From Methanomassiliicoccaceae archaeon (GTDB taxonomy: Archaea > Thermoplasmatota > Thermoplasmata > Methanomassiliicoccales > Methanomassiliicoccaceae): DNA of 64,000 nt. The number at the start of each line of letters is the position of its first letter. Position 1 is the stretch's first letter. Under the pieces are notes generated by a model, which worked only from the letters and a program-made list of their open reading frames with translations, was not told the DNA's origin and did not search any database. This document shows, in pieces, positions 1,300 to 58,684 of the stretch. The position numbers and the translations under genes are program-made. The stretch lies in assembly GCA_963728405.1 (NCBI GenBank), contig CAVSJV010000003.1, positions 64,001 through 128,000 of the forward strand. The letters are read 5' to 3'.

Positions 1300-1477
1300 C
1301 AATAAGGTCCATCCAATCGGCCGTATTTGATTATATCCGGACCGATATGCATTCTAACGTTTCGCAATCATGGCCGACCTCCTCAACCAGGCAATATGAC
1401 GCCGACAGAAGTTGCGTAGTTCGCTCCCTCGCGCTCATTCTTTCCTTCGTCCGATCCGTATCGGCAAGAAAATTGTA

Positions 1478-1838
1478 TCACAGAGGGCACGATCGGGCCT
1501 CCGCCAAGGGCGATGGATCGGGTGGGGGCCCGTTCAGGAGGGGTATAGCGAACAGTATGGCGAAAAACACCTCAGATAGCAGTATGATGATCGCCACTGT
1601 GACGCTCACCTGGCGCAGGCTTCTCCCGGTCGCGCTGATGAGCGCGGCGGTCATCGGTTCCGGCCCATCCATATTGCAAGGACCACGGCCTCGGTGGGGA
1701 CAATGGCCGCTCCAAGGAAGGCCTCTCCGAGGCCATCATCAATATGGGCCCATGGACGTTGTTTCTCCTGGCGGCCATCTGCCCATACCATATCTTTTCG
1801 TCCGACGACGGGGCGGTGGAGTTCGATGGGAGCCTCAT
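1478..1838 (-). pseudogene. Possible degraded membrane-protein gene
   Basis: Hydrophobic segments spread over three overlapping frames (GEAFLGAAIV..., VSVTVAIIILLSEVFFAILFAIPLL). Confidence 0.25.
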
Positions 1839-49926: not shown

Positions 49927-50009
49927 CGCTCAATGGATACAGTGGTGTCGAGGAGATGTCGCACCGGCGGTCGACGCCACCGTGTCTTCGGATTGGGGGA
50001 ACGGTCCGC

Positions 50010-50519
50010 CTAGTACACGAACGGGATCAGCTTCTTGCTGCTCCTTATGTAGTCCTCATACTCGGCCCCGAACCGTCCGATGAGCATCCTCTCCTCCAGC
50101 TTGATCCGGTGCAGGAGGTAGGGCACGATAAGGAGCATGACCAGGAACCCGAGTATGCTGGACAGCATAACCGGAAAGCCCAGGAAGAGCAGGATGGCCC
50201 CGAGGTACGCGGGATGGCGGATCCACCGGTAGATGCCTTTCTTGACCAGGGTGTGGTCGTCCCTGATGCGCAGGCGGCCGGAGAAGTTCTTCTTCAACGT
50301 GGCGATGGCCACGAACCTGATGACCAGGCCCAGCACGATCATTCCCAGGCCTACCGACAAAAGTACCAGGTTGATGCCTGAGAGCGATCCGACCTTAATG
50401 ACCTGGCCGTTACCGGCCGCTATGCCAGTAGGGTCCAATGCGGACACCAATAGGCCAAGCCCAATGATGATGAACAGCCCCACCATGAAGAGGGGGCTCT
50501 CGTAACGCTTTTTCTCCAT
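50010..50519 (-). CDS. Isoprenylcysteine carboxyl methyltransferase / PEMT family membrane protein
   Basis: HTLVKKGIYRWIRHPAYLG, EERML..FG.EY..Y. Confidence 0.9.
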   Translation of the reverse strand: MEKKRYESPLFMVGLFIIIGLGLLVSALDPTGIAAGNGQVIKVGSLSGINLVLLSVGLGMIVLGLVIRFVAIATLKKNFSGRLRIRDDHTLVKKGIYRWIRHPAYLGAILLFLGFPVMLSSILGFLVMLLIVPYLLHRIKLEERMLIGRFGAEYEDYIRSSKKLIPFVY

Positions 50520-50686
50520 CGCCCGGGAATTTCCGAACGGGCTAATAAGGCTATCCTGCGCTCAAAAACCGGGGGGTCTGGGCGGGCGCTCACCTAACCA
50601 TCCTGGATTCCCAAGAAGTAAGTGTTTCTCGAGCTGCTGTTGTCAACCTTGAGTTCGTTAATGGAAGAGTTGAACCGAGGTATTTT

Positions 50687-50775
50687 ACATGCCCCGGATT
50701 GTGCAAGTTCTCGAGCTAGCATCTTTGATTGTCAGCTCAATCAAAGGAAAATTGCACCTAGGCATCAAACCCTTT
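50687..50775 (+). repeat. Diverged direct repeat, copy 1
   Basis: Ungapped 89-nt alignment to 52175-52263, 64/89 identical by manual count. Confidence 0.75.
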
Positions 50776-50949
50776 CATTATCTTTACTAGCTAGTGGGTC
50801 TGACCGGCCCCATCTTTCGACTAATGGCCAATTTTGAAAACCCTCCCCCCAACGAAAGGCTGACTGGACGATGTCCATCGCAGGGTTATTATCGCAGAAA
50901 TTCTAAAAACAGCAAGTTATAATTACTTTTGAACAACCTGCATTCCGAG

Positions 50950-52059
50950 ATGAGCCGTCCAGTCCAGACATCGATCGCCATTCTCTTGGTTGCAAGCCTG
51001 TTGATCACTGGGGGCTTGAGTTGTATTTCTTCCTCTCGGGCAGAGGGATCGAACTCTGAACTGGTTCCCGAACCCTGGGTGCATGAAACCCACGAGTTTA
51101 ACGTGCCCATTGACACCTCCGTTCCTGACAGCGGAGTTTGTAACGAGAAGTGGTCGATCGAAGTACGACATGGGGACGTACTGACCCTCCTGATGGCCAG
51201 GAACATCACTCAGGATGATCAGTCAACGGTCGACTATACTTTCAATATCATGTATACGATCGGGGATACCGAGTACATTGCTCAATTTATGATCATGTAC
51301 GTGACGCTTGTCGTTGACCAGCAGATCATAACCGTGCCATTGACGACCTGTGATGATTTTGCACTGGTTGTTTCTCCGGTGCAATACAACGGCACTGTGC
51401 CTACTTTTGATTGCGCCATCACCTACAAAGATCTTCGATTGTATTCGGATGTATCTAAGAATTCGACCCTCGATCTAACATTGTTCCATCACTTCAGCGC
51501 GGACTGGAACCAAACCGACGTAAAGGTGGAAGCGCTGTTTGATTTCAACAATACAAAACTTTTCGATGAGTCAACTGGTAATGAGCTCGATGCTGGCACA
51601 ACTTTCGCTACCGAGATCCACTACGGAATGATGGTGCATAAAGCCCATGCTTTCGGGACCGAGGGACCAATAATTCCCACAGGGAATACCGATGGGACCT
51701 TGGAGTACAACCTGACGCTTGATAACGGTGCCCCCTTAAGGATGTCGAAATTGAATATGAGCAACGCATTCAACGTGTTCAATGGAACTGGAGCCTACGC
51801 CTCCATGGGTTATTCTTCGATGAATTATGCTGCGCAATCTCATGTCGTACATGGGTTTCCGAATCTGATCTACAAGGACACTCTGTCAATGAAGAGCGAC
51901 CCCGAGATCACCGTGTTCCACGACCGGGTCACCGAGGACCAGATGAACGACAACAACAATCCTAGCGGATTACCCCTGTGGATACCGATAATGGTAATTG
52001 GAGCGATTGCGGCCGTGAGCGTAGCCATCGTAATGGTGAAGAGAAAGAAGAAGGTGTAG
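50950..52059 (+). CDS. Secreted cell-surface protein with C-terminal TM anchor
   Basis: N-terminal signal, beta-rich body with N-x-S/T sequons, TM followed by KRKKKV tail. Confidence 0.8.
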   Translation: MSRPVQTSIAILLVASLLITGGLSCISSSRAEGSNSELVPEPWVHETHEFNVPIDTSVPDSGVCNEKWSIEVRHGDVLTLLMARNITQDDQSTVDYTFNIMYTIGDTEYIAQFMIMYVTLVVDQQIITVPLTTCDDFALVVSPVQYNGTVPTFDCAITYKDLRLYSDVSKNSTLDLTLFHHFSADWNQTDVKVEALFDFNNTKLFDESTGNELDAGTTFATEIHYGMMVHKAHAFGTEGPIIPTGNTDGTLEYNLTLDNGAPLRMSKLNMSNAFNVFNGTGAYASMGYSSMNYAAQSHVVHGFPNLIYKDTLSMKSDPEITVFHDRVTEDQMNDNNNPSGLPLWIPIMVIGAIAAVSVAIVMVKRKKKV

Positions 52060-52174
52060 TAGAAAGGCGGAAAGAGGCGCGAAAAGGCCATTTGATAGGG
52101 GTTTGGCGTGTCCTCCCGCATGTCAATTCCGCCTGACCAACGAGAAAGTCAGAGCGTCTGGCTATGGATCGCTC

Positions 52175-52263
52175 ACATTCCCAGAATGTTGAGAATGTTC
52201 GAGCCAGCATCTCGCCTTTTTTGCTCAATTCGAGGAAATTTGCACCGAAGCACCAAACCCTTT
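52175..52263 (+). repeat. Diverged direct repeat, copy 2
   Basis: Matches 50687-50775 (TCGAGCyAGCATCT, GCTCAAT, TTGCACC, CAAACCCTTT). Confidence 0.75.
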
Positions 52264-52575
52264 GTTTTTTTTATACGATAAGGTGGCCCATTTGGGTTTG
52301 AACCATGGTTGAGCTATAAAGAACACCTTGATGGCCGCGTTCACCACATTTGATATTCAAATCCGGTCGGATTCGGTCGGTTCCAATCCAGATAGTCGCG
52401 TTCGAAGGTCAATAACGGCATTTCGTGCAGTGAGCGATCTGTTGGACAGAAATCCTTCTTTTTTCTTTATCAAGTGGGCTCAGTAGTGATTCAAACAGGA
52501 GAAAGGAGGGGCTGTCCAAGGCGCGGAGGAGGGCCACTTCCCCGGCCGACCCCTGCTGAATTAGATATAACGACC

Positions 52576-52974
52576 TCAGAGTCCCCTAATGATTTCCTTT
52601 AGCGCCGCCACCGCGGTGTCGAACTCCTCGTTGGTCGACGGCTTGACCATCCAAAGATGAGGAATCGTACTGGCAACCTCGACCATGACCGGAGAACCGC
52701 TGAAGACCACAATATTGACGCCATCGAGCAGATCGCCCGCTTGCTCCAGGAACTCCTTGCCACCCACCTTGGGCATGTTCAGGTCGAGGATGATGAGCTG
52801 AGGCTTGGGGGATGAAGCGTACCGGCCTTCTCGTTTCAAGAACGCCAGGGCATCCTCTCCGTTGGTGACCTCATCTACATGAAAAGTGAGCTTGGTCTCG
52901 TTGAGCATCTCCCTGACGACCAGTCTGTCCGCGGCGTTGTCGTCGGCGAGGAGGATTTGAATTGCTTCACCCAT
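52576..52974 (-). CDS. Stand-alone response regulator receiver (Rcp1-like)
   Basis: ILLADDN, ILDLNMPK, KP. Confidence 0.92.
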   Translation of the reverse strand: MGEAIQILLADDNAADRLVVREMLNETKLTFHVDEVTNGEDALAFLKREGRYASSPKPQLIILDLNMPKVGGKEFLEQAGDLLDGVNIVVFSGSPVMVEVASTIPHLWMVKPSTNEEFDTAVAALKEIIRGL

Positions 52975-53082
52975 CAGTTATCGTTACATAATAACGAATT
53001 AGAAGATTGAACCTTTGCTTTTACTCTTACGACCCGAATGCGGCTCATTGGTCGGCCATTCGATTGAACTCCGACCATCGAC

Positions 53083-53678
53083 CTAAATCATGGGTTCCCG
53101 GTGGCATGGGGAGGGCATAACGGGATCATCCCGGTGATCGAACCGTCTGTTCGCGAACGGTTCCCAGGTCGGGGCGAATTTCAAAGCAGCCGTGGGAAGC
53201 ATCTTCGGCCATGAAGCCTGAGTCGTCGGACCGTCCGGGCCGTTCCTATCGTTCCTCTTGCTCTGAGAAACGAGGGCGTGGTTCAGGCATTTGATTGTTG
53301 CTTCATACTCGCCCATGTTGCTCGGCTTCAGGCAGTAGCTCGTGGCACCCAGGGAGCGAGCTTTGGTCTCATCGGATGGGTTGAGGGAGCCGGTCAGGAC
53401 GACGACGGGTATCGACCTCAACGTGTTCGAGGACTTTACGAAAGTGAGCACATCGAAACCGTTCACCATGGGCAAGTTAAGGTCCAGAACAATGATGTCG
53501 GGTTGGACCACGGAAAAGAATCCGTTCTTCTTCTCTAGGTAGTCCAGGGCAATCTGGCCATTCTTCGCCACGAACATCTTGTTAGAGGCAGTCCGATCTC
53601 CTCCAACATCTCCTGGACAATCGAGGCATCGCTCGGATTGTCCTCGATTATCAGTACTTCAATCTGGTTCCAATTCAT
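53083..53678 (-). CDS. Response regulator receiver (Rcp1-like) with C-terminal tail; frameshift at ~53581
   Basis: IEVLIIEDNPSD in one frame; VLDLNLPMVNG, VVLTGS and KP in the next; ATG overlaps the kinase stop. Confidence 0.85.
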
Positions 53679-55150
53679 CGTGCGTCTCCTCCCTTTGGCA
53701 TAGTAAAGTAGAACTTTGCTCCCTTCCCTTCCTCCGACTCGACCCAGATGCGACCACCGTGGTTCTCCACGATTCTCTTGGCGACCGCTAGCCCGATACC
53801 GGTACCCTCGTAATCGTTACGGTTGTGCAGGCGCTGGAACATCTCGAATATCTTTTCGTGGAATTTAGAATCGATTCCTATTCCGTTATCCTGGATGGAG
53901 AATAACCATTCTCGGCCGCGGTCCTGGCATGATACATGCACCTTGGGTGGTTCTTTTCCGTGATACTTGATAGCGTTGCCGATAAGGTTCTGCAGCAACT
54001 GGGCCATCTGTCCTTTGTCCCCAATGATCGTAGGAAGAGAATCTTCCTGAATGGTAGCATTATTGGCAGTGATGGATGTTCTCAGAGAATCGATCGTCTC
54101 GCTCAGGACATGGTTCATATCTACGTTAGTGGAGGCAATGTTCTTCGACTGCAGCCTCGAGTACGCGAGTAGATCGACGATGAGATCCTTCATCCTGCTC
54201 GCGCCTTCTACGGCGTAATCGATGTGTTCCTTTCCCCGGCCATCCAATTTATCGGCGTATCGTCTCTCCAACAAGCTCAGCTGCATGGTGACGGTCCGGA
54301 GCGGCTCCTGCAGGTCGTGGCTGGCCACGTAAGCGAACTGCTGAAGCTCGGCGTTGGAGCGCTTCAGCGCCTCTTCCGCGTTCTTGCGCTCGGTAAGAGC
54401 TCTTTCAAGTTCACTCTTTGAAGCGGTCACCGTTTTCAGATTGGCAGTCATCTGATTGACGGATTGAGAAATTTCGCCGATTTCATCTTTATTTGCTTTC
54501 AAGGAGTAATCAAGGTTACCTGAACCTATTACTCCAATCCCTTTTTGCAACTCAACGATCGATTTATAAGTTTTCCGATATGTTATAATATAAACGGTTA
54601 GAAAGTAAATGCCGAAAAGCCCAAGAAGAGTAATAATGAGAATGATGTTTGTAGAGTTGGCTTGGTCGACTTGGTCACGCAGATTTTGCGAAAGTTGTTG
54701 TGCATCAAATGATAGAGCTTGAACTTGAACCGCAATTCGGCTCCACTGGATCTGAAATTGTGGCAGTACCCCTACGCTAACGTTTCCAGGCTCTTTTTCA
54801 AGAATAGACACCACACTATTGAAAACAGCGTTTAGGTTCTGCAGGTCATTTTTTACGTTGTTAACAAGCGTTTGTCGGTGGAGATCGGTCGAGTTCAGTT
54901 TTGCAAGTTCTTCGGACAATCTTGCAAATTGGGTCTGCCACAAGGAAATGGAGGAATTGTCTTGGTAGAGGAGGTAATTGCTCGAGATATAGTTGAGGTT
55001 GCTAGCTCCTGTCTGAATGTCGTGGGCAGTGGCTTCTTGATTACTCAACTGTGACGTCCGGACTTCAGTTATGACTATGGATGCTATAATGATAGTCAGT
55101 ATTACGATAAAACTTACTATGCCCATTAGGAACTGATGTTTAAGTTTCAT
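53675..55150 (-). CDS. Membrane sensor histidine kinase (2 TM, HAMP, HisKA, HATPase)
   Basis: DEIGEI HAMP, ASHDLQEPL H-box, NLIGNAIKY, DNGIGI, GTGIGL. Confidence 0.95.
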   Translation of the reverse strand: MKLKHQFLMGIVSFIVILTIIIASIVITEVRTSQLSNQEATAHDIQTGASNLNYISSNYLLYQDNSSISLWQTQFARLSEELAKLNSTDLHRQTLVNNVKNDLQNLNAVFNSVVSILEKEPGNVSVGVLPQFQIQWSRIAVQVQALSFDAQQLSQNLRDQVDQANSTNIILIITLLGLFGIYFLTVYIITYRKTYKSIVELQKGIGVIGSGNLDYSLKANKDEIGEISQSVNQMTANLKTVTASKSELERALTERKNAEEALKRSNAELQQFAYVASHDLQEPLRTVTMQLSLLERRYADKLDGRGKEHIDYAVEGASRMKDLIVDLLAYSRLQSKNIASTNVDMNHVLSETIDSLRTSITANNATIQEDSLPTIIGDKGQMAQLLQNLIGNAIKYHGKEPPKVHVSCQDRGREWLFSIQDNGIGIDSKFHEKIFEMFQRLHNRNDYEGTGIGLAVAKRIVENHGGRIWVESEEGKGAKFYFTMPKGGDAR

Positions 55151-55159
55151 TTTTCTTCA

Positions 55160-56203
55160 TCAGCCAATGATGTTTACTGCCTCTGGCTTTACGGCCTCCA
55201 ATCCATCAGTGTAGATGTAGTTTAGGAAGTTGGGAACAGAGGTTGCATTTGTTAAGTGGTTGTTTCTAAGCCATCGAGCTTCATCTTGCATTGCTAATAG
55301 TAGCGATTGGTCGAGCGTTAAAGCGAACGCATTCTGCTTCCAAACGGTTTCCACATACTCGTCAGTAAAGTTTAGTGCTTTCTTGACTATTTCTTTTGCC
55401 TGGGCCGGTTGGTTAATTGTGAATTCTTCAGCCCGCAGGAGTGATTTGAGAAAACTGTTGACCAGTTCAGGATGCGCTGAAATCCAATCATCTTTGGCAA
55501 TCGCCAGTGAATATAGAGGCTGATTACTCTGTATCGACCAAACAACAGCGTTATCACCCAGACCCTGTTTCGCTAAATCGGTATATGGTTGTGCACTTGC
55601 AACCGCATCAACAGAGCCGTTGACAACAGCATTCACCCAATCTGCTGGCGTTTTGAGATCGATAAGATTTACGTCTTGCATTTCAATGCCGTTAAGTTCT
55701 AAAAATCGTCCTAGGTAAAACTGGGCTATAGTTCCAAAGGCTGTTCCAATTGTTTTTCCTTTTATATCTGAAACATTTACAATTCCCCGGTCTGCCCGTC
55801 CGACAAGATTTATATATTCGCCCTTGTCGATACTTCCAATTGTTTGGAGCTTTTCTTGATTAAGTGCGCTTGCAGCGAAAGGGAACTCCGATGTTCCCAC
55901 GACAATATCCGCTTCTCCATTGAGCATACCGCTTAATGCACCTGCTCCACTACCATACATGCGTGTGGTTACTTGAAGACCGTGTTGTGCAAAAAACTGC
56001 TGGTTTTGGGCAATCAAAAAAAGCGAGGTGGCCTCAAACGGTGAATAAGCAACGGTGATTGATTCTATTTTTTTGCCCATATTAGATTTCTGTGTATTGA
56101 GATAAACGAATGAGCTGAGAATAACTACTGTGACTAAGAGCACTGCGGCGAGGATTATGAGTTTCTTTTTCTTTTGCTCGGATATCTGCATGCCAATTTC
56201 CAT
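55160..56203 (-). CDS. NMT1/SsuA-like substrate-binding protein, membrane anchored
   Basis: N-terminal TM, GKTIGT..GT, VDAVASAQPY, DWISAHPE; low GC. Confidence 0.85.
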   Translation of the reverse strand: MEIGMQISEQKKKKLIILAAVLLVTVVILSSFVYLNTQKSNMGKKIESITVAYSPFEATSLFLIAQNQQFFAQHGLQVTTRMYGSGAGALSGMLNGEADIVVGTSEFPFAASALNQEKLQTIGSIDKGEYINLVGRADRGIVNVSDIKGKTIGTAFGTIAQFYLGRFLELNGIEMQDVNLIDLKTPADWVNAVVNGSVDAVASAQPYTDLAKQGLGDNAVVWSIQSNQPLYSLAIAKDDWISAHPELVNSFLKSLLRAEEFTINQPAQAKEIVKKALNFTDEYVETVWKQNAFALTLDQSLLLAMQDEARWLRNNHLTNATSVPNFLNYIYTDGLEAVKPEAVNIIG

Positions 56204-56570
56204 CCTAGGCCCGCAATCGCCCAGTGCTTCGCTGATACTCTTCAGCCATCGCCACCCTTGGACCGCTTATTCCATCATCGAATAATGCTACTTGAACTCT
56301 CCTCCTGAAGGGTACAACATGATAGAAATGCCCGCAGTTATAGCTCACTAATCATTGACTAGGCGTTCATGATCGAGATTAATCTTGAGTCTAGTTCCCA
56401 ATATTAATCAACGTGCATCTTCTATAATTGTAAGGGATTAATGATACTAATTTCGTTCCCAATTTTATCAATTGAAAACAACATATTCTTTGTACACTCC
56501 TCTAAACATGATAATAGGGTTTAGCCAGGCGAATTAGCGGTCACAAATTCTGCTCTGTCCACTTACGCAA

Positions 56571-56576
56571 TTATAT
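56571..56576 (+). promoter_or_regulatory. TATA box of the candidate ncRNA
   Basis: ACGCAA-TTATAT about 20-30 nt upstream of the abrupt start of the GC-rich folded region. Confidence 0.45.
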
Positions 56577-56592
56577 TTCAAAAATTCAAATT

Positions 56593-56883
56593 CCGGTATC
56601 GGTAGGATATCGGACTCGAGGGGGTAGCCAGGAGAGGACAAGCAACCCTCATCGGACATCGAGGCAGGTACCCCACCTAAGGGTGAGTCTGCTGGGGTCA
56701 AACGTGGGGGGTCGAGGCAGGGGTCTCAAGCCTCCCCTTTGACCAGGTAATCGTCTGCAGTCAGGGGGTCAAGGACCCAGGGGGTCGGAGTAAGCCTCTC
56801 CGGACTTCGCAGGGACTAGTTTCACCGTAGCCAAGGAAAGGCGGGTCCATACCCCCCTCATTGAGGCCGTCCAGGTGCCCCGG
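56593..56883 (+). ncRNA. Candidate large structured non-coding RNA (unassigned)
   Basis: No ORF; long terminal helix plus at least four internal stems; G-U pairs favour the + strand. Confidence 0.65.
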
Positions 56884-56935
56884 TGCAAAAAACCGCTGAT
56901 TGACGAAAAAGTTGGGATGACTGGCTAGGGTTTTC

Positions 56936-58684
56936 TTACATCCCCCAGAACTTGTCCACCTTCCGCTTCACTTCGAGCGTTTCGTCCAGGAGCATGCGGT
57001 CGTCGAGGTTGAGGTCCATCTTCTGGATCTCCTTGATCATCAGCTCCCTCAGGTCGACGTACAGAATGTCCTCAACGTTGATCTGGCGACCGACCGTCGG
57101 TCCCTCGATCGCTACAGCGACCTCCTGCCCCTGGATCGCTTCCTTGACCACTTCTTCCCCAGAGCGGATGGACCGGATCTTTCCGACGTCGATGCCTTCG
57201 GTGTTGAGCAGGGTCTGCCCCGGCCGTATGCGGCCTGCCAGGACCCTCACCCCGACGATGGCCGGCTTGGAGGCCCGGAAGACACAGTTGGGAAGCAACT
57301 TCACTTTACCGGGGAAGGCAAACTCCGAGCGCTTCTCCACGTCCAGGCGGCGCTTCTCCTCCTCCACCCACTTCTGATAGTCCTCGATTAGGCGGTAGAC
57401 GACGTCGTTGGTGAAGACCTTCAGCGGATAGTTGGGCAGCGCGTCCTTGGCCTCCGGGAGCAGGGTGACATTGAAGCCGAGGATGACGCGGTGCTGCGGC
57501 TCCCCGTACGCCGCGGTATCGATGAGGTCCTTCCGAGAGATGGCACCGGTATCGTACTTGCGGATGGGGATCTCAGCCGCCTTGCATTCGAAGGCCAGCG
57601 CCTCGAGCGATCCGATGGCGTCCGCCTTGATGTAGACGCCCGCTTCGATGGTCTCGATATTGACCTTGGTCTCGTTGACCACCTCTTCCAATGCCTCATT
57701 GACGTTGCCGGTCGCCGCCCTCAGCGGTCCTCCCGCCACGACGCCATCGATGCTCTGGCACATCACCTTGATGCCGATGGCCGCGGAGACCTCCTTCACC
57801 GATTCGAAGCGGTCCCGAGGGTCGCGGATCTCGTCCAGCGGCTTCGGCTTGAGGATCGCCTTGATCTTGGTGGTGAGCGGCTTGCCCTTCGTTCCGAGGA
57901 TGACGGTGTCCCCACGATGCAATGTGCCGGCATAGATGATCACGTCCAGCGTAGAGCCCAAGCCCTTCTCTTCCTTTACCTCCAGGATGGTGCCCTGGGC
58001 CGGCCCCTCCTCGGTCTTGAGCTGCTGCTCCAGGAACCTCTGGGCCAGGCCGATGAGCATGAGCAGCAGGTCCGGCAGTCCCTCGCCGTTGCGGGCCGAC
58101 ATAGGCACCACGGCAATGGTCTTGGTGAAGTCCTCGATGCGGTCGTAGCGGTCGGCGGAGAAACCTCTTTCATAGAGGTCTCCGATGATCTTGTACATCT
58201 TCTCGTCCAGCTTGGCCCTGCCCTCGTCGGTCTGGCTCTTGTAGCTGAGCACGAAGGGGGCGTTGGGCTTGGTCTGCCAGCCCTCCACCAGGTCGATCTT
58301 GTTCATGGCGATGATGAAGGGGGTCTTGAATCGCTTCAGGATGCCGATGGACTCGATGGTCTGGGGCTTCAGCCCCTCGTTGATGTCGATGACCAGGACG
58401 GCCAGGTCGGCCAAGGAGCCGCCCCTCGCCCGCAGCGAGGTGAACGATTGATGCCCGGGGGTGTCGATGAACAGGAGGCCGGGCATGTTGAACTTCTTCT
58501 CGCCGATGAGCGGCCGGCACACCTTATAGATGTGTTCTATCGGCACCTCGGTCGCGCCGATGTGCTGCGTGATCAGGCCAGCCTCGCGCTGAACGACGGC
58601 GGTGCCCCTGATACGATCGAGCAAAGAGGTCTTGCCGTGGTCCACGTGGCCTAGGACGCTCACAATCGGCTGCCTGGTGGGCAT
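56936..58684 (-). CDS. infB: Translation initiation factor aIF5B/IF-2
   Basis: [34 protein letters not shown]. Confidence 0.98.
   Translation of the reverse strand: MPTRQPIVSVLGHVDHGKTSLLDRIRGTAVVQREAGLITQHIGATEVPIEHIYKVCRPLIGEKKFNMPGLLFIDTPGHQSFTSLRARGGSLADLAVLVIDINEGLKPQTIESIGILKRFKTPFIIAMNKIDLVEGWQTKPNAPFVLSYKSQTDEGRAKLDEKMYKIIGDLYERGFSADRYDRIEDFTKTIAVVPMSARNGEGLPDLLLMLIGLAQRFLEQQLKTEEGPAQGTILEVKEEKGLGSTLDVIIYAGTLHRGDTVILGTKGKPLTTKIKAILKPKPLDEIRDPRDRFESVKEVSAAIGIKVMCQSIDGVVAGGPLRAATGNVNEALEEVVNETKVNIETIEAGVYIKADAIGSLEALAFECKAAEIPIRKYDTGAISRKDLIDTAAYGEPQHRVILGFNVTLLPEAKDALPNYPLKVFTNDVVYRLIEDYQKWVEEEKRRLDVEKRSEFAFPGKVKLLPNCVFRASKPAIVGVRVLAGRIRPGQTLLNTEGIDVGKIRSIRSGEEVVKEAIQGQEVAVAIEGPTVGRQINVEDILYVDLRELMIKEIQKMDLNLDDRMLLDETLEVKRKVDKFWGM

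Follow-up and report, generated by a model that had tools for sequence, protein, structure and literature searches.

The candidate RNA gene at positions 56593-56883 of the window, that is, of the whole 64-kb stretch of DNA analysed here, is a discrete non-coding unit as judged from its reading frames and homology boundaries, and comparison with related genomes marks it as something other than a chromosomal housekeeping RNA. It is a module of ~270-290 nt carried by tyrosine-recombinase integrative elements, and it is tentatively regarded, with a confidence that stops short of calling the reading probable, as a small transcription unit of the element for a moderately structured RNA. The original prediction had been a highly structured RNA gene convergent on infB, belonging either to a new large non-coding RNA class or to a very divergent known one. 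The genome (G000; the window lies on its contig C3) encodes McrA and is that of a methanogenic archaeon. Related genomes are designated G003, G008, G011 and so on.

The insertion beside infB and its relatives

The gene infB (56936-58684, minus strand) encodes an aIF5B-type initiation factor GTPase with the Pfam domains GTP_EFTU, GTP_EFTU_D4 and IF-2. It is the chromosomal neighbour of the candidate and the integration target, and orthologues are found in nine of ten congeners. Because att-like repeats flank the region in G000 and the site is empty in G003, the closest congener, whose infB is 97% identical, the ~4.8 kb at window ~52129-56951 is identified as an insertion, with the candidate at its right end in the place of an integrase gene. 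The empty site consists of a homologue of the surface-protein gene (window 50929-52059), then ~105 nt, then infB, and none of the island genes occurs in the 8 kb infB flank of G003. At the left boundary, a degenerate attL-like stretch (52129-52186, plus strand) resembles in alignment both the att core beside infB and the G003 empty site. It is followed by a conserved element left end (52190-52271, plus strand) that is the same as the sequence just inside attL in G008 (tblastn, C3:116195-116272; blastn), and in blastn the stretch 52140-52270 matches the G008 left junction at 76% over 132 nt. At the right boundary, the attR core (56893-56951, plus strand) is common to attL and the G003 empty site, and comprises the last five infB codons and the T-runs downstream of infB, which are probably the infB terminator on the minus strand.

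The island cargo (52576-56203, minus strand; Pfam and NCBIfam) encodes response-regulator receiver proteins (52576-52974 and 53083-53577), a HAMP histidine kinase (53675-55150) and an NMT1-like substrate-binding protein (55160-56203). The histidine-kinase gene has dozens of paralogous stretches across the genome at 64-91% DNA identity, several of them clustered on contigs C18, C6, C12 and C13. At the right end, translation of 56863-56928 (plus strand) yields the last 21 codons and stop of a tyrosine recombinase (EAVQVPRCKKPLIDEKVGMTG*), an element-derived attR arm that overlaps the module at its 3' end. An integrated element is expected to be flanked by att repeats and to be matched by an empty site in a relative, and both are found; of the integrase gene expected at the island end, G000 holds these 21 codons and the stop only.

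In G008 and G011, the same spot is occupied by a tyrosine-recombinase gene that converges on infB and ends ...QVPRCKKPL.... The G008 gene is a pseudogene, disrupted by one stop and one frameshift, and that of G011 is an open frame of 417 aa. The latter (L020 1389-2642, minus strand) has lost the stop used in G008 and G000 (TAG to TAT) and continues for ~30 codons through the att core and into the infB 3' end in antisense, which gives it its length. An intact homologue of 390 aa on contig C18 of G000 matches Pfam Phage_integrase with 34.2 bits against a cut-off of 27.1. In G008, a stretch of ~95 nt that combines integrase codons, a spacer and the last five infB codons occurs twice, 12 kb apart, and this arrangement identifies the two copies as the att repeats of an integrated element. 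Att sites at the infB 3' end were located in the window (56893-56951), in L047 (4139-4220 and 16197-16290), in L020 (~1440-1560, minus strand) and in L064 (the G001 flank). From these alignments, the infB 3' end with its downstream T-runs is taken to be an integration hot spot that a single tyrosine-recombinase lineage has used in two genera or more (G008, G011). G001 also has a related att-like arm. Additional left-end remnants occur upstream of the surface-protein gene in both G000 and G003 (window ~50711-50775; L063 6516-6632), which suggests tandem or successive integrations; a further copy lies at C4:274476.

How the module came to stand where relatives have an integrase is hinted at by a 12-nt sequence, GAGGCCRTCCAG, that is common to the 3' end of the module in both of its copies and to the 3' end of the G008 integrase gene. 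Since it is shared by both 3' ends, recombination at this microhomology may have replaced the integrase with the module.

In the SSV-type arrangement, the att site lies within an archaeal integrase gene. The elements at infB resemble it in that the att repeat includes integrase codons and one junction keeps part of the integrase frame. They differ in that only the last 21 codons and stop overlap att, so that the gene is not split on integration, and in that the target is the infB 3' end rather than a tRNA gene. In the portions of the literature consulted, neither integration at infB nor an att-adjacent RNA in methanogen elements was found.

The elements also exchange parts. A block of 3.6 kb with three ORFs (about 100, 385 and 364 aa) is found at C18:9221-12824 and at L047 10566-14153 in G008, with 90.8% DNA and 95-96% protein identity between species whose infB proteins are 87% identical. 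This indicates a recent transfer of an element module. Its ORFs matched no named family in Pfam, PHROGs or NCBIfam, and nearly every gene of the C18 and G008 elements likewise stayed without a name in these searches.

Two copies of the module and their structure

A single paralogue of the candidate was found in the genome, at C18:15042-15331, with ~70% identity over 283-298 nt. It sits in another element, the one with the intact 390-aa integrase, which also has genes 95-96% identical to genes of the G008 element. Homology between the two copies starts at the TATA-like motif and palindrome and ends at GAGGCCRTCCAG, and both edges are sharp in the unrelated surroundings of the two copies. The module core (56614-56874, plus strand; ~70% identical to C18:15064-15328) holds several predicted hairpins inside a closing stem, in which CUCGAG-GGGG (56615-56624) would pair with CCCC-CUCAUUGAG (56853-56865).

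Beyond this paralogue, the module was sought widely. In blastn against 60 relatives, its interior had no match and its ends alone were recovered: the last ~38 nt in G008 (twice) and G011, and the first ~23 nt at isolated sites in G008, G021 and G000. The interior occurs in none of the ten congeners and is absent from all 23 family genomes compared. R1, a covariance model made from both copies, found no homologue other than the paralogue in 24 family, 151 order and 151 class genomes; its extra matches were the att arm in G008 (19.9 bits) and a sequence in G217 (14.4 bits, E = 0.09). Applied to the infB flanks of five congeners and of G008 and to L052, R1 returned nothing, and neither did blastn at a distant setting against plasmid and phage collections. 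Motif scans, one pattern of which covered the paralogue's spelling only, gave no match in viral contigs. They gave one in genome contigs, in a bacterial MAG (L052) that R1 did not match, and in metagenome contigs none and then one (L069), which R1 rejected; both matches are apparently due to chance. A search for trans targets complementary to the conserved blocks produced nothing interpretable. The homologue search that the original prediction had called for has therefore yielded one paralogue of 70% identity, and none in family, order or class genomes or in plasmid and phage collections. With the sole homologue in the same genome, and with a locus that is an insertion absent from the closest congener, the proposal of a new large non-coding RNA class is not supported.

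Two near-identical stretches of ~315 nt (C7:32720-33030 and C16:4470-4780) were encountered elsewhere in the genome. The second lies near the end of a 4.8-kb contig, and C16 may be an unresolved repeat copy of the C7 region.

The module is non-coding. No reading frame is conserved between its copies, every frame is interrupted by stops, and the indels do not keep to multiples of three. Its interior has no protein-level match in tblastx. In local alignment against shuffled sequences, similarity of the interior to the integrase genes gave z = 0.8 (G008 gene) and -0.1 (G011 gene), compared with 35.8 for the paralogue, and a decayed integrase or other coding DNA was rejected on these grounds.

The complementary words on which the original prediction was built are all present in 56593-56883, though for several 3' partners the coordinate given is that of the last base or is shifted by a few bases: GGTGCC begins at 56874 rather than 56879, TACCCCCCTC at 56850 and TTTGACC at 56738. 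The description of the region as highly structured did not hold at the level of single-sequence stability. The plus strand of the candidate folds to a minimum free energy of -123.5 kcal/mol, where shuffles average -117.2 (z = -1.17), and 26 of 200 dinucleotide shuffles were equal or better; the minus strand gave z = -0.31, and the paralogue z = -1.29, with 22 of 200 shuffles equal or better. The evidence that the candidate is a folded RNA is weak.

Comparison of the two copies adds some support. The structure that they share has 62 pairs, of which 5 changed on both sides and 15 on one, as counted in two sequences from which the structure itself was derived. Both-side changes include the closing stem and helix 9. 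Five compensatory pairs out of 62 were reached in 13 of 500 shuffles, again for two sequences of one genome. Paired columns differ at 25 of 124 positions and unpaired columns at 69 of 168. When alignment columns were shuffled, alifold gave z = -1.85 on the plus strand (9 of 300 shuffles as good) and -0.67 on the minus strand (73 of 300). These values point to pair conservation that is modest and specific to the plus strand. Support from covariation is thin, since there are two sequences only, both from one genome, and the tested structure was derived from them. Reading the alignment of the candidate with the C18 paralogue for individual helices divides the predicted pairings. At the closing ends, the CTCGA/TTGAG pairing and the GGGG/CCCC stem are kept in the paralogue with one compensatory pair, and GGTATC/GGTGCC is not. 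Among the internal arms, CTGC/GCAG is kept with two compensatory pairs and GGGTC/GACCC is invariant, and neither GCAGG/TCTGC nor GAGGC/GCCTC is kept.

These results bear on the strongest competitor of an RNA unit, which is a real possibility though not a probable one: that the module is functionless, a non-coding leftover of a decayed or recombined integrative element that was pasted over the integrase gene through the 12-nt GAGGCCRTCCAG and shows the structure of any sequence of 62% GC. The insignificant fold scores (z = -1.17 and -1.29) are as expected of such a remnant, and so is the occurrence of two copies only, at 70% identity in one genome. The surroundings fit as well, since the island has lost its integrase, its attL is degenerate, and the region is a patchwork of element remnants in which more left-end copies lie nearby (window 50711-50775). 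The GAGGCCRTCCAG shared by both module copies and the G008 integrase provides a route for the pasting. Decay explains less readily why homology has sharp boundaries on both sides in two unrelated contexts, why paired columns are twice as conserved as unpaired ones, why there are five compensatory pairs and an alifold score that differs between strands, and why a TATA-like motif and a palindrome stand at the 5' edge of both copies.

The palindrome and promoter-like signals at the 5' edge

The module is preceded by an AT-rich spacer (56350-56592, plus strand; 27-37% GC) that contains short direct repeats and whose 3' end is the BRE/TATA-like ACGCAA-TTATATTT (56565-56578). The abrupt switch from AT-rich to GC-rich DNA noticed in the original prediction is borne out: in 100-nt windows, GC rises from 27-37% (56400-56599) to 61-62% (56600-56899). 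The 291 nt of the candidate have 62% GC. Since the window averages 58% and the contigs 51-61%, the composition of the candidate is ordinary and it is the AT-rich spacer that is unusual. BRE and TATA elements form the general archaeal promoter consensus, by which ACGCAA-TTATATTT, with its TATA-like TTATATTT at 56571-56578, may be read as a promoter. A scan for sigma-70 promoters and intrinsic terminators, bacterial-type signals that do not apply to archaea, gave nothing above shuffles. On the plus strand, no oligo-T terminator stands close behind the module, the first T-run being at ~56930-56934.

At 56593-56613, the module begins with the palindrome CCGGTATC-N5-GATAYCGG, which had been taken for a 5' hairpin. 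It recurs in the genome. Allowing one mismatch at most, eight sites were found in G000, and a reversed control pattern found none. The sites are at C3:120593, C5:3534, C17:296908 and C18:9222, 14039, 14094, 15043 and 18743; five of the eight fall within C18:9222-18763, in the element that carries the paralogue and the intact integrase. Its arms stay constant from site to site and its spacers differ (for example GGTAG, GGCAA and GTAGT). This is how a target of a dimeric DNA-binding protein or of a recombinase behaves, not an RNA hairpin, and the palindrome is accordingly read as a DNA site. One site forms the exact left edge of the 3.6-kb block that is 90.8% identical between C18 and G008, and there the spacer has opposite orientations in the two genomes. 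The C5 and C17 copies have a homologous left flank in common, and the G008 site comes after a TrmB-family regulator gene.

From the TATA-like motif to the palindrome, the distance is 15 nt in the candidate and 2 nt in the paralogue; this 13-nt difference means that promoter geometry is not conserved. The usual archaeal spacing between TATA element and start would place transcription initiation inside or at the palindrome in both copies. The palindrome would in that case cover the start point, a placement that is frequent among repressor sites.

A second competitor makes the whole module a cis-acting DNA element, such as an origin of replication with an adjoining AT-rich stretch for unwinding, or a region beside att that binds a recombinase or an accessory protein. 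Its setting suits such a role: it directly adjoins att and a 240-nt AT-rich stretch with short direct repeats, and it starts with a palindrome that recurs between genes of the C18 element and marks a mosaic breakpoint. This reading is nevertheless improbable. Pair conservation that depends on G-U pairs and is specific to the plus strand is not needed by sites in duplex DNA, the module contains no iteron-like array, and no replication gene is recognisable in either the C18 or the G008 element.

The reading of the module as a small transcription unit of the element accommodates these features as follows. The BRE/TATA promoter (56565-56578) would direct initiation near 56600, inside the palindrome, which would itself act as a protein-binding operator or a recombination site of the element family rather than as an RNA hairpin. 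A transcript of ~260-330 nt would close by a 5'/3' terminal stem, CUCGAG-GGGG/CCCC-CUCAUUGAG, around a few hairpins and, convergent with infB, would head for the 3' end of that gene. It would serve the regulation or maintenance of the element itself, not host translation or secretion. Several observations weigh against the transcription unit: single-sequence folds fall inside the shuffle range, several of the helices originally predicted are not kept in the paralogue, the TATA-palindrome distance varies by 13 nt, and no T-run terminator is close on the plus strand. Moreover, no homologue was found in the 24 family, 151 order and 151 class genomes, and a functionless remnant would look alike.

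Comparison with known RNAs and elements

Many integrases use tRNA genes as targets, and the module could likewise be a conserved chromosomal non-coding RNA gene into which elements integrate. Its 3' end does overlap the att arm. This is very unlikely all the same, as the native empty site of G003 lacks the sequence and has the att core between the surface-protein gene and infB, the interior occurs in none of the ten congeners, and the common arm is integrase coding sequence in G008 and G011. A scan of window 50000-58000 detected no tRNA or tmRNA.

Least credible of all is membership, however divergent, in a known family of large RNAs, be it SRP RNA, RNase P RNA or a group I or II intron, which has in its favour a size near 290 nt and a weak Archaea_SRP alignment and has against it every family search and the absence of the locus from the closest congener. 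Across the whole 64 kb, none of the 4227 families of Rfam 15 matched at gathering level. In a permissive scan of 56300-57100, all matches were at chance level, and the best relevant one was Archaea_SRP (RF01857) with 12.1 bits (E = 2.5), against a gathering score of 96.5. Its alignment covers the Alu-like helices on the outside and leaves out 229 of the 317 model positions, including helices 5, 6 and 8; these central positions are replaced by 64 unaligned nt in the candidate, and a genuine copy of the RNA on contig C2 aligns through them. RNaseP_arch (RF00373) and RNaseP-T (RF02357) had no match in 56300-57100 at E <= 10, and the best genome-wide match to RNaseP-T (11.9 bits) lies away from the candidate and below cut-off. 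Group I and group II introns, HEARO and other large RNAs of Rfam were absent from the window at gathering level and from the region at E <= 10.

The canonical ffs and rnpB genes do exist elsewhere, both on contig C2: an archaeal SRP RNA at C2:292161-292471 (155.7 bits) and an RNase P RNA at C2:141633-141923 (217.9 bits). As far as covariance models allow, a divergent SRP or RNase P RNA is ruled out, and the corresponding part of the original prediction is refuted. With archaeal SRP (7S) RNA, the candidate shares a length near 300 nt, a G+C-rich composition, paired 5' and 3' ends and several internal hairpins; it differs from it in its score, in the skipped helices and in being a strain-specific insertion. 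With archaeal RNase P RNA, it shares size alone.

Contig C2 also holds a further RNA match. At C2:34943-35209 (minus strand; locus L002 1503-1765), a full-length match to the bacterial large SRP RNA model (RF01854) scores 168.6 bits against a cut-off of 60, with its helix-8 motif intact, on the contig that holds the archaeal SRP RNA, RNase P RNA and mcrA. None of the ten congeners has an RNA of this type. It could have arrived by horizontal transfer, be a second SRP RNA that lacks helix 6, or stem from a chimeric contig (the contamination estimate is 4.07%). The ORFs beside it, for an ABC ATPase and a CPA2 antiporter, are not diagnostic.

Integrative elements, plasmids and proviruses carry non-coding RNAs and cis elements of their own, among them copy-control or immunity RNAs and the prophage-linked GOLLD and ROOL families of Rfam. 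The candidate resembles these in being borne by a mobile element, in lying close to att at the integrase position, in its promoter-like signal and in its narrow distribution. It differs from them in matching none of the 4227 Rfam families, in its archaeal host and in having no known target or partner gene. MITE- and PATE-like derivatives are likewise small and non-coding, with a palindrome at one end and more than one copy. Membership was rejected, as such families have many copies, terminal inverted repeats and target-site duplications; the module has two copies at 70% identity, no terminal inverted repeats at its extreme ends and, by reading of the flanks, no target-site duplication, and no transposase family was recognised near it.

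A bolder form of the transcription-unit reading, which is conceivable though unlikely, would make the module the first member of a new family of structured RNAs (~260-300 nt) belonging to methanogen tyrosine-recombinase integrative elements. Such an RNA would have its own promoter, controlled by an element-encoded regulator acting on CCGGTATC-N5-GATACCGG, and a role in maintenance, immunity or the control of excision. In the G000 island, the module that replaced the integrase gene may be all that remains of the element's regulatory circuitry.

For the genome, a false lead has been removed: the candidate neither stands in for an absent SRP or RNase P RNA nor offers an alternative to one, and it is no universal new class of RNA. 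For the methanogen family, an integration hot spot at the infB 3' end is documented, with tandem remnants in G000, and the palindrome CCGGTATC-N5-GATACCGG provides a recurrent marker of module boundaries in otherwise unannotated elements. If the module is transcribed, it would be a rare case of a structured RNA encoded by an archaeal mobile element and would offer a handle on the regulation of these elements.
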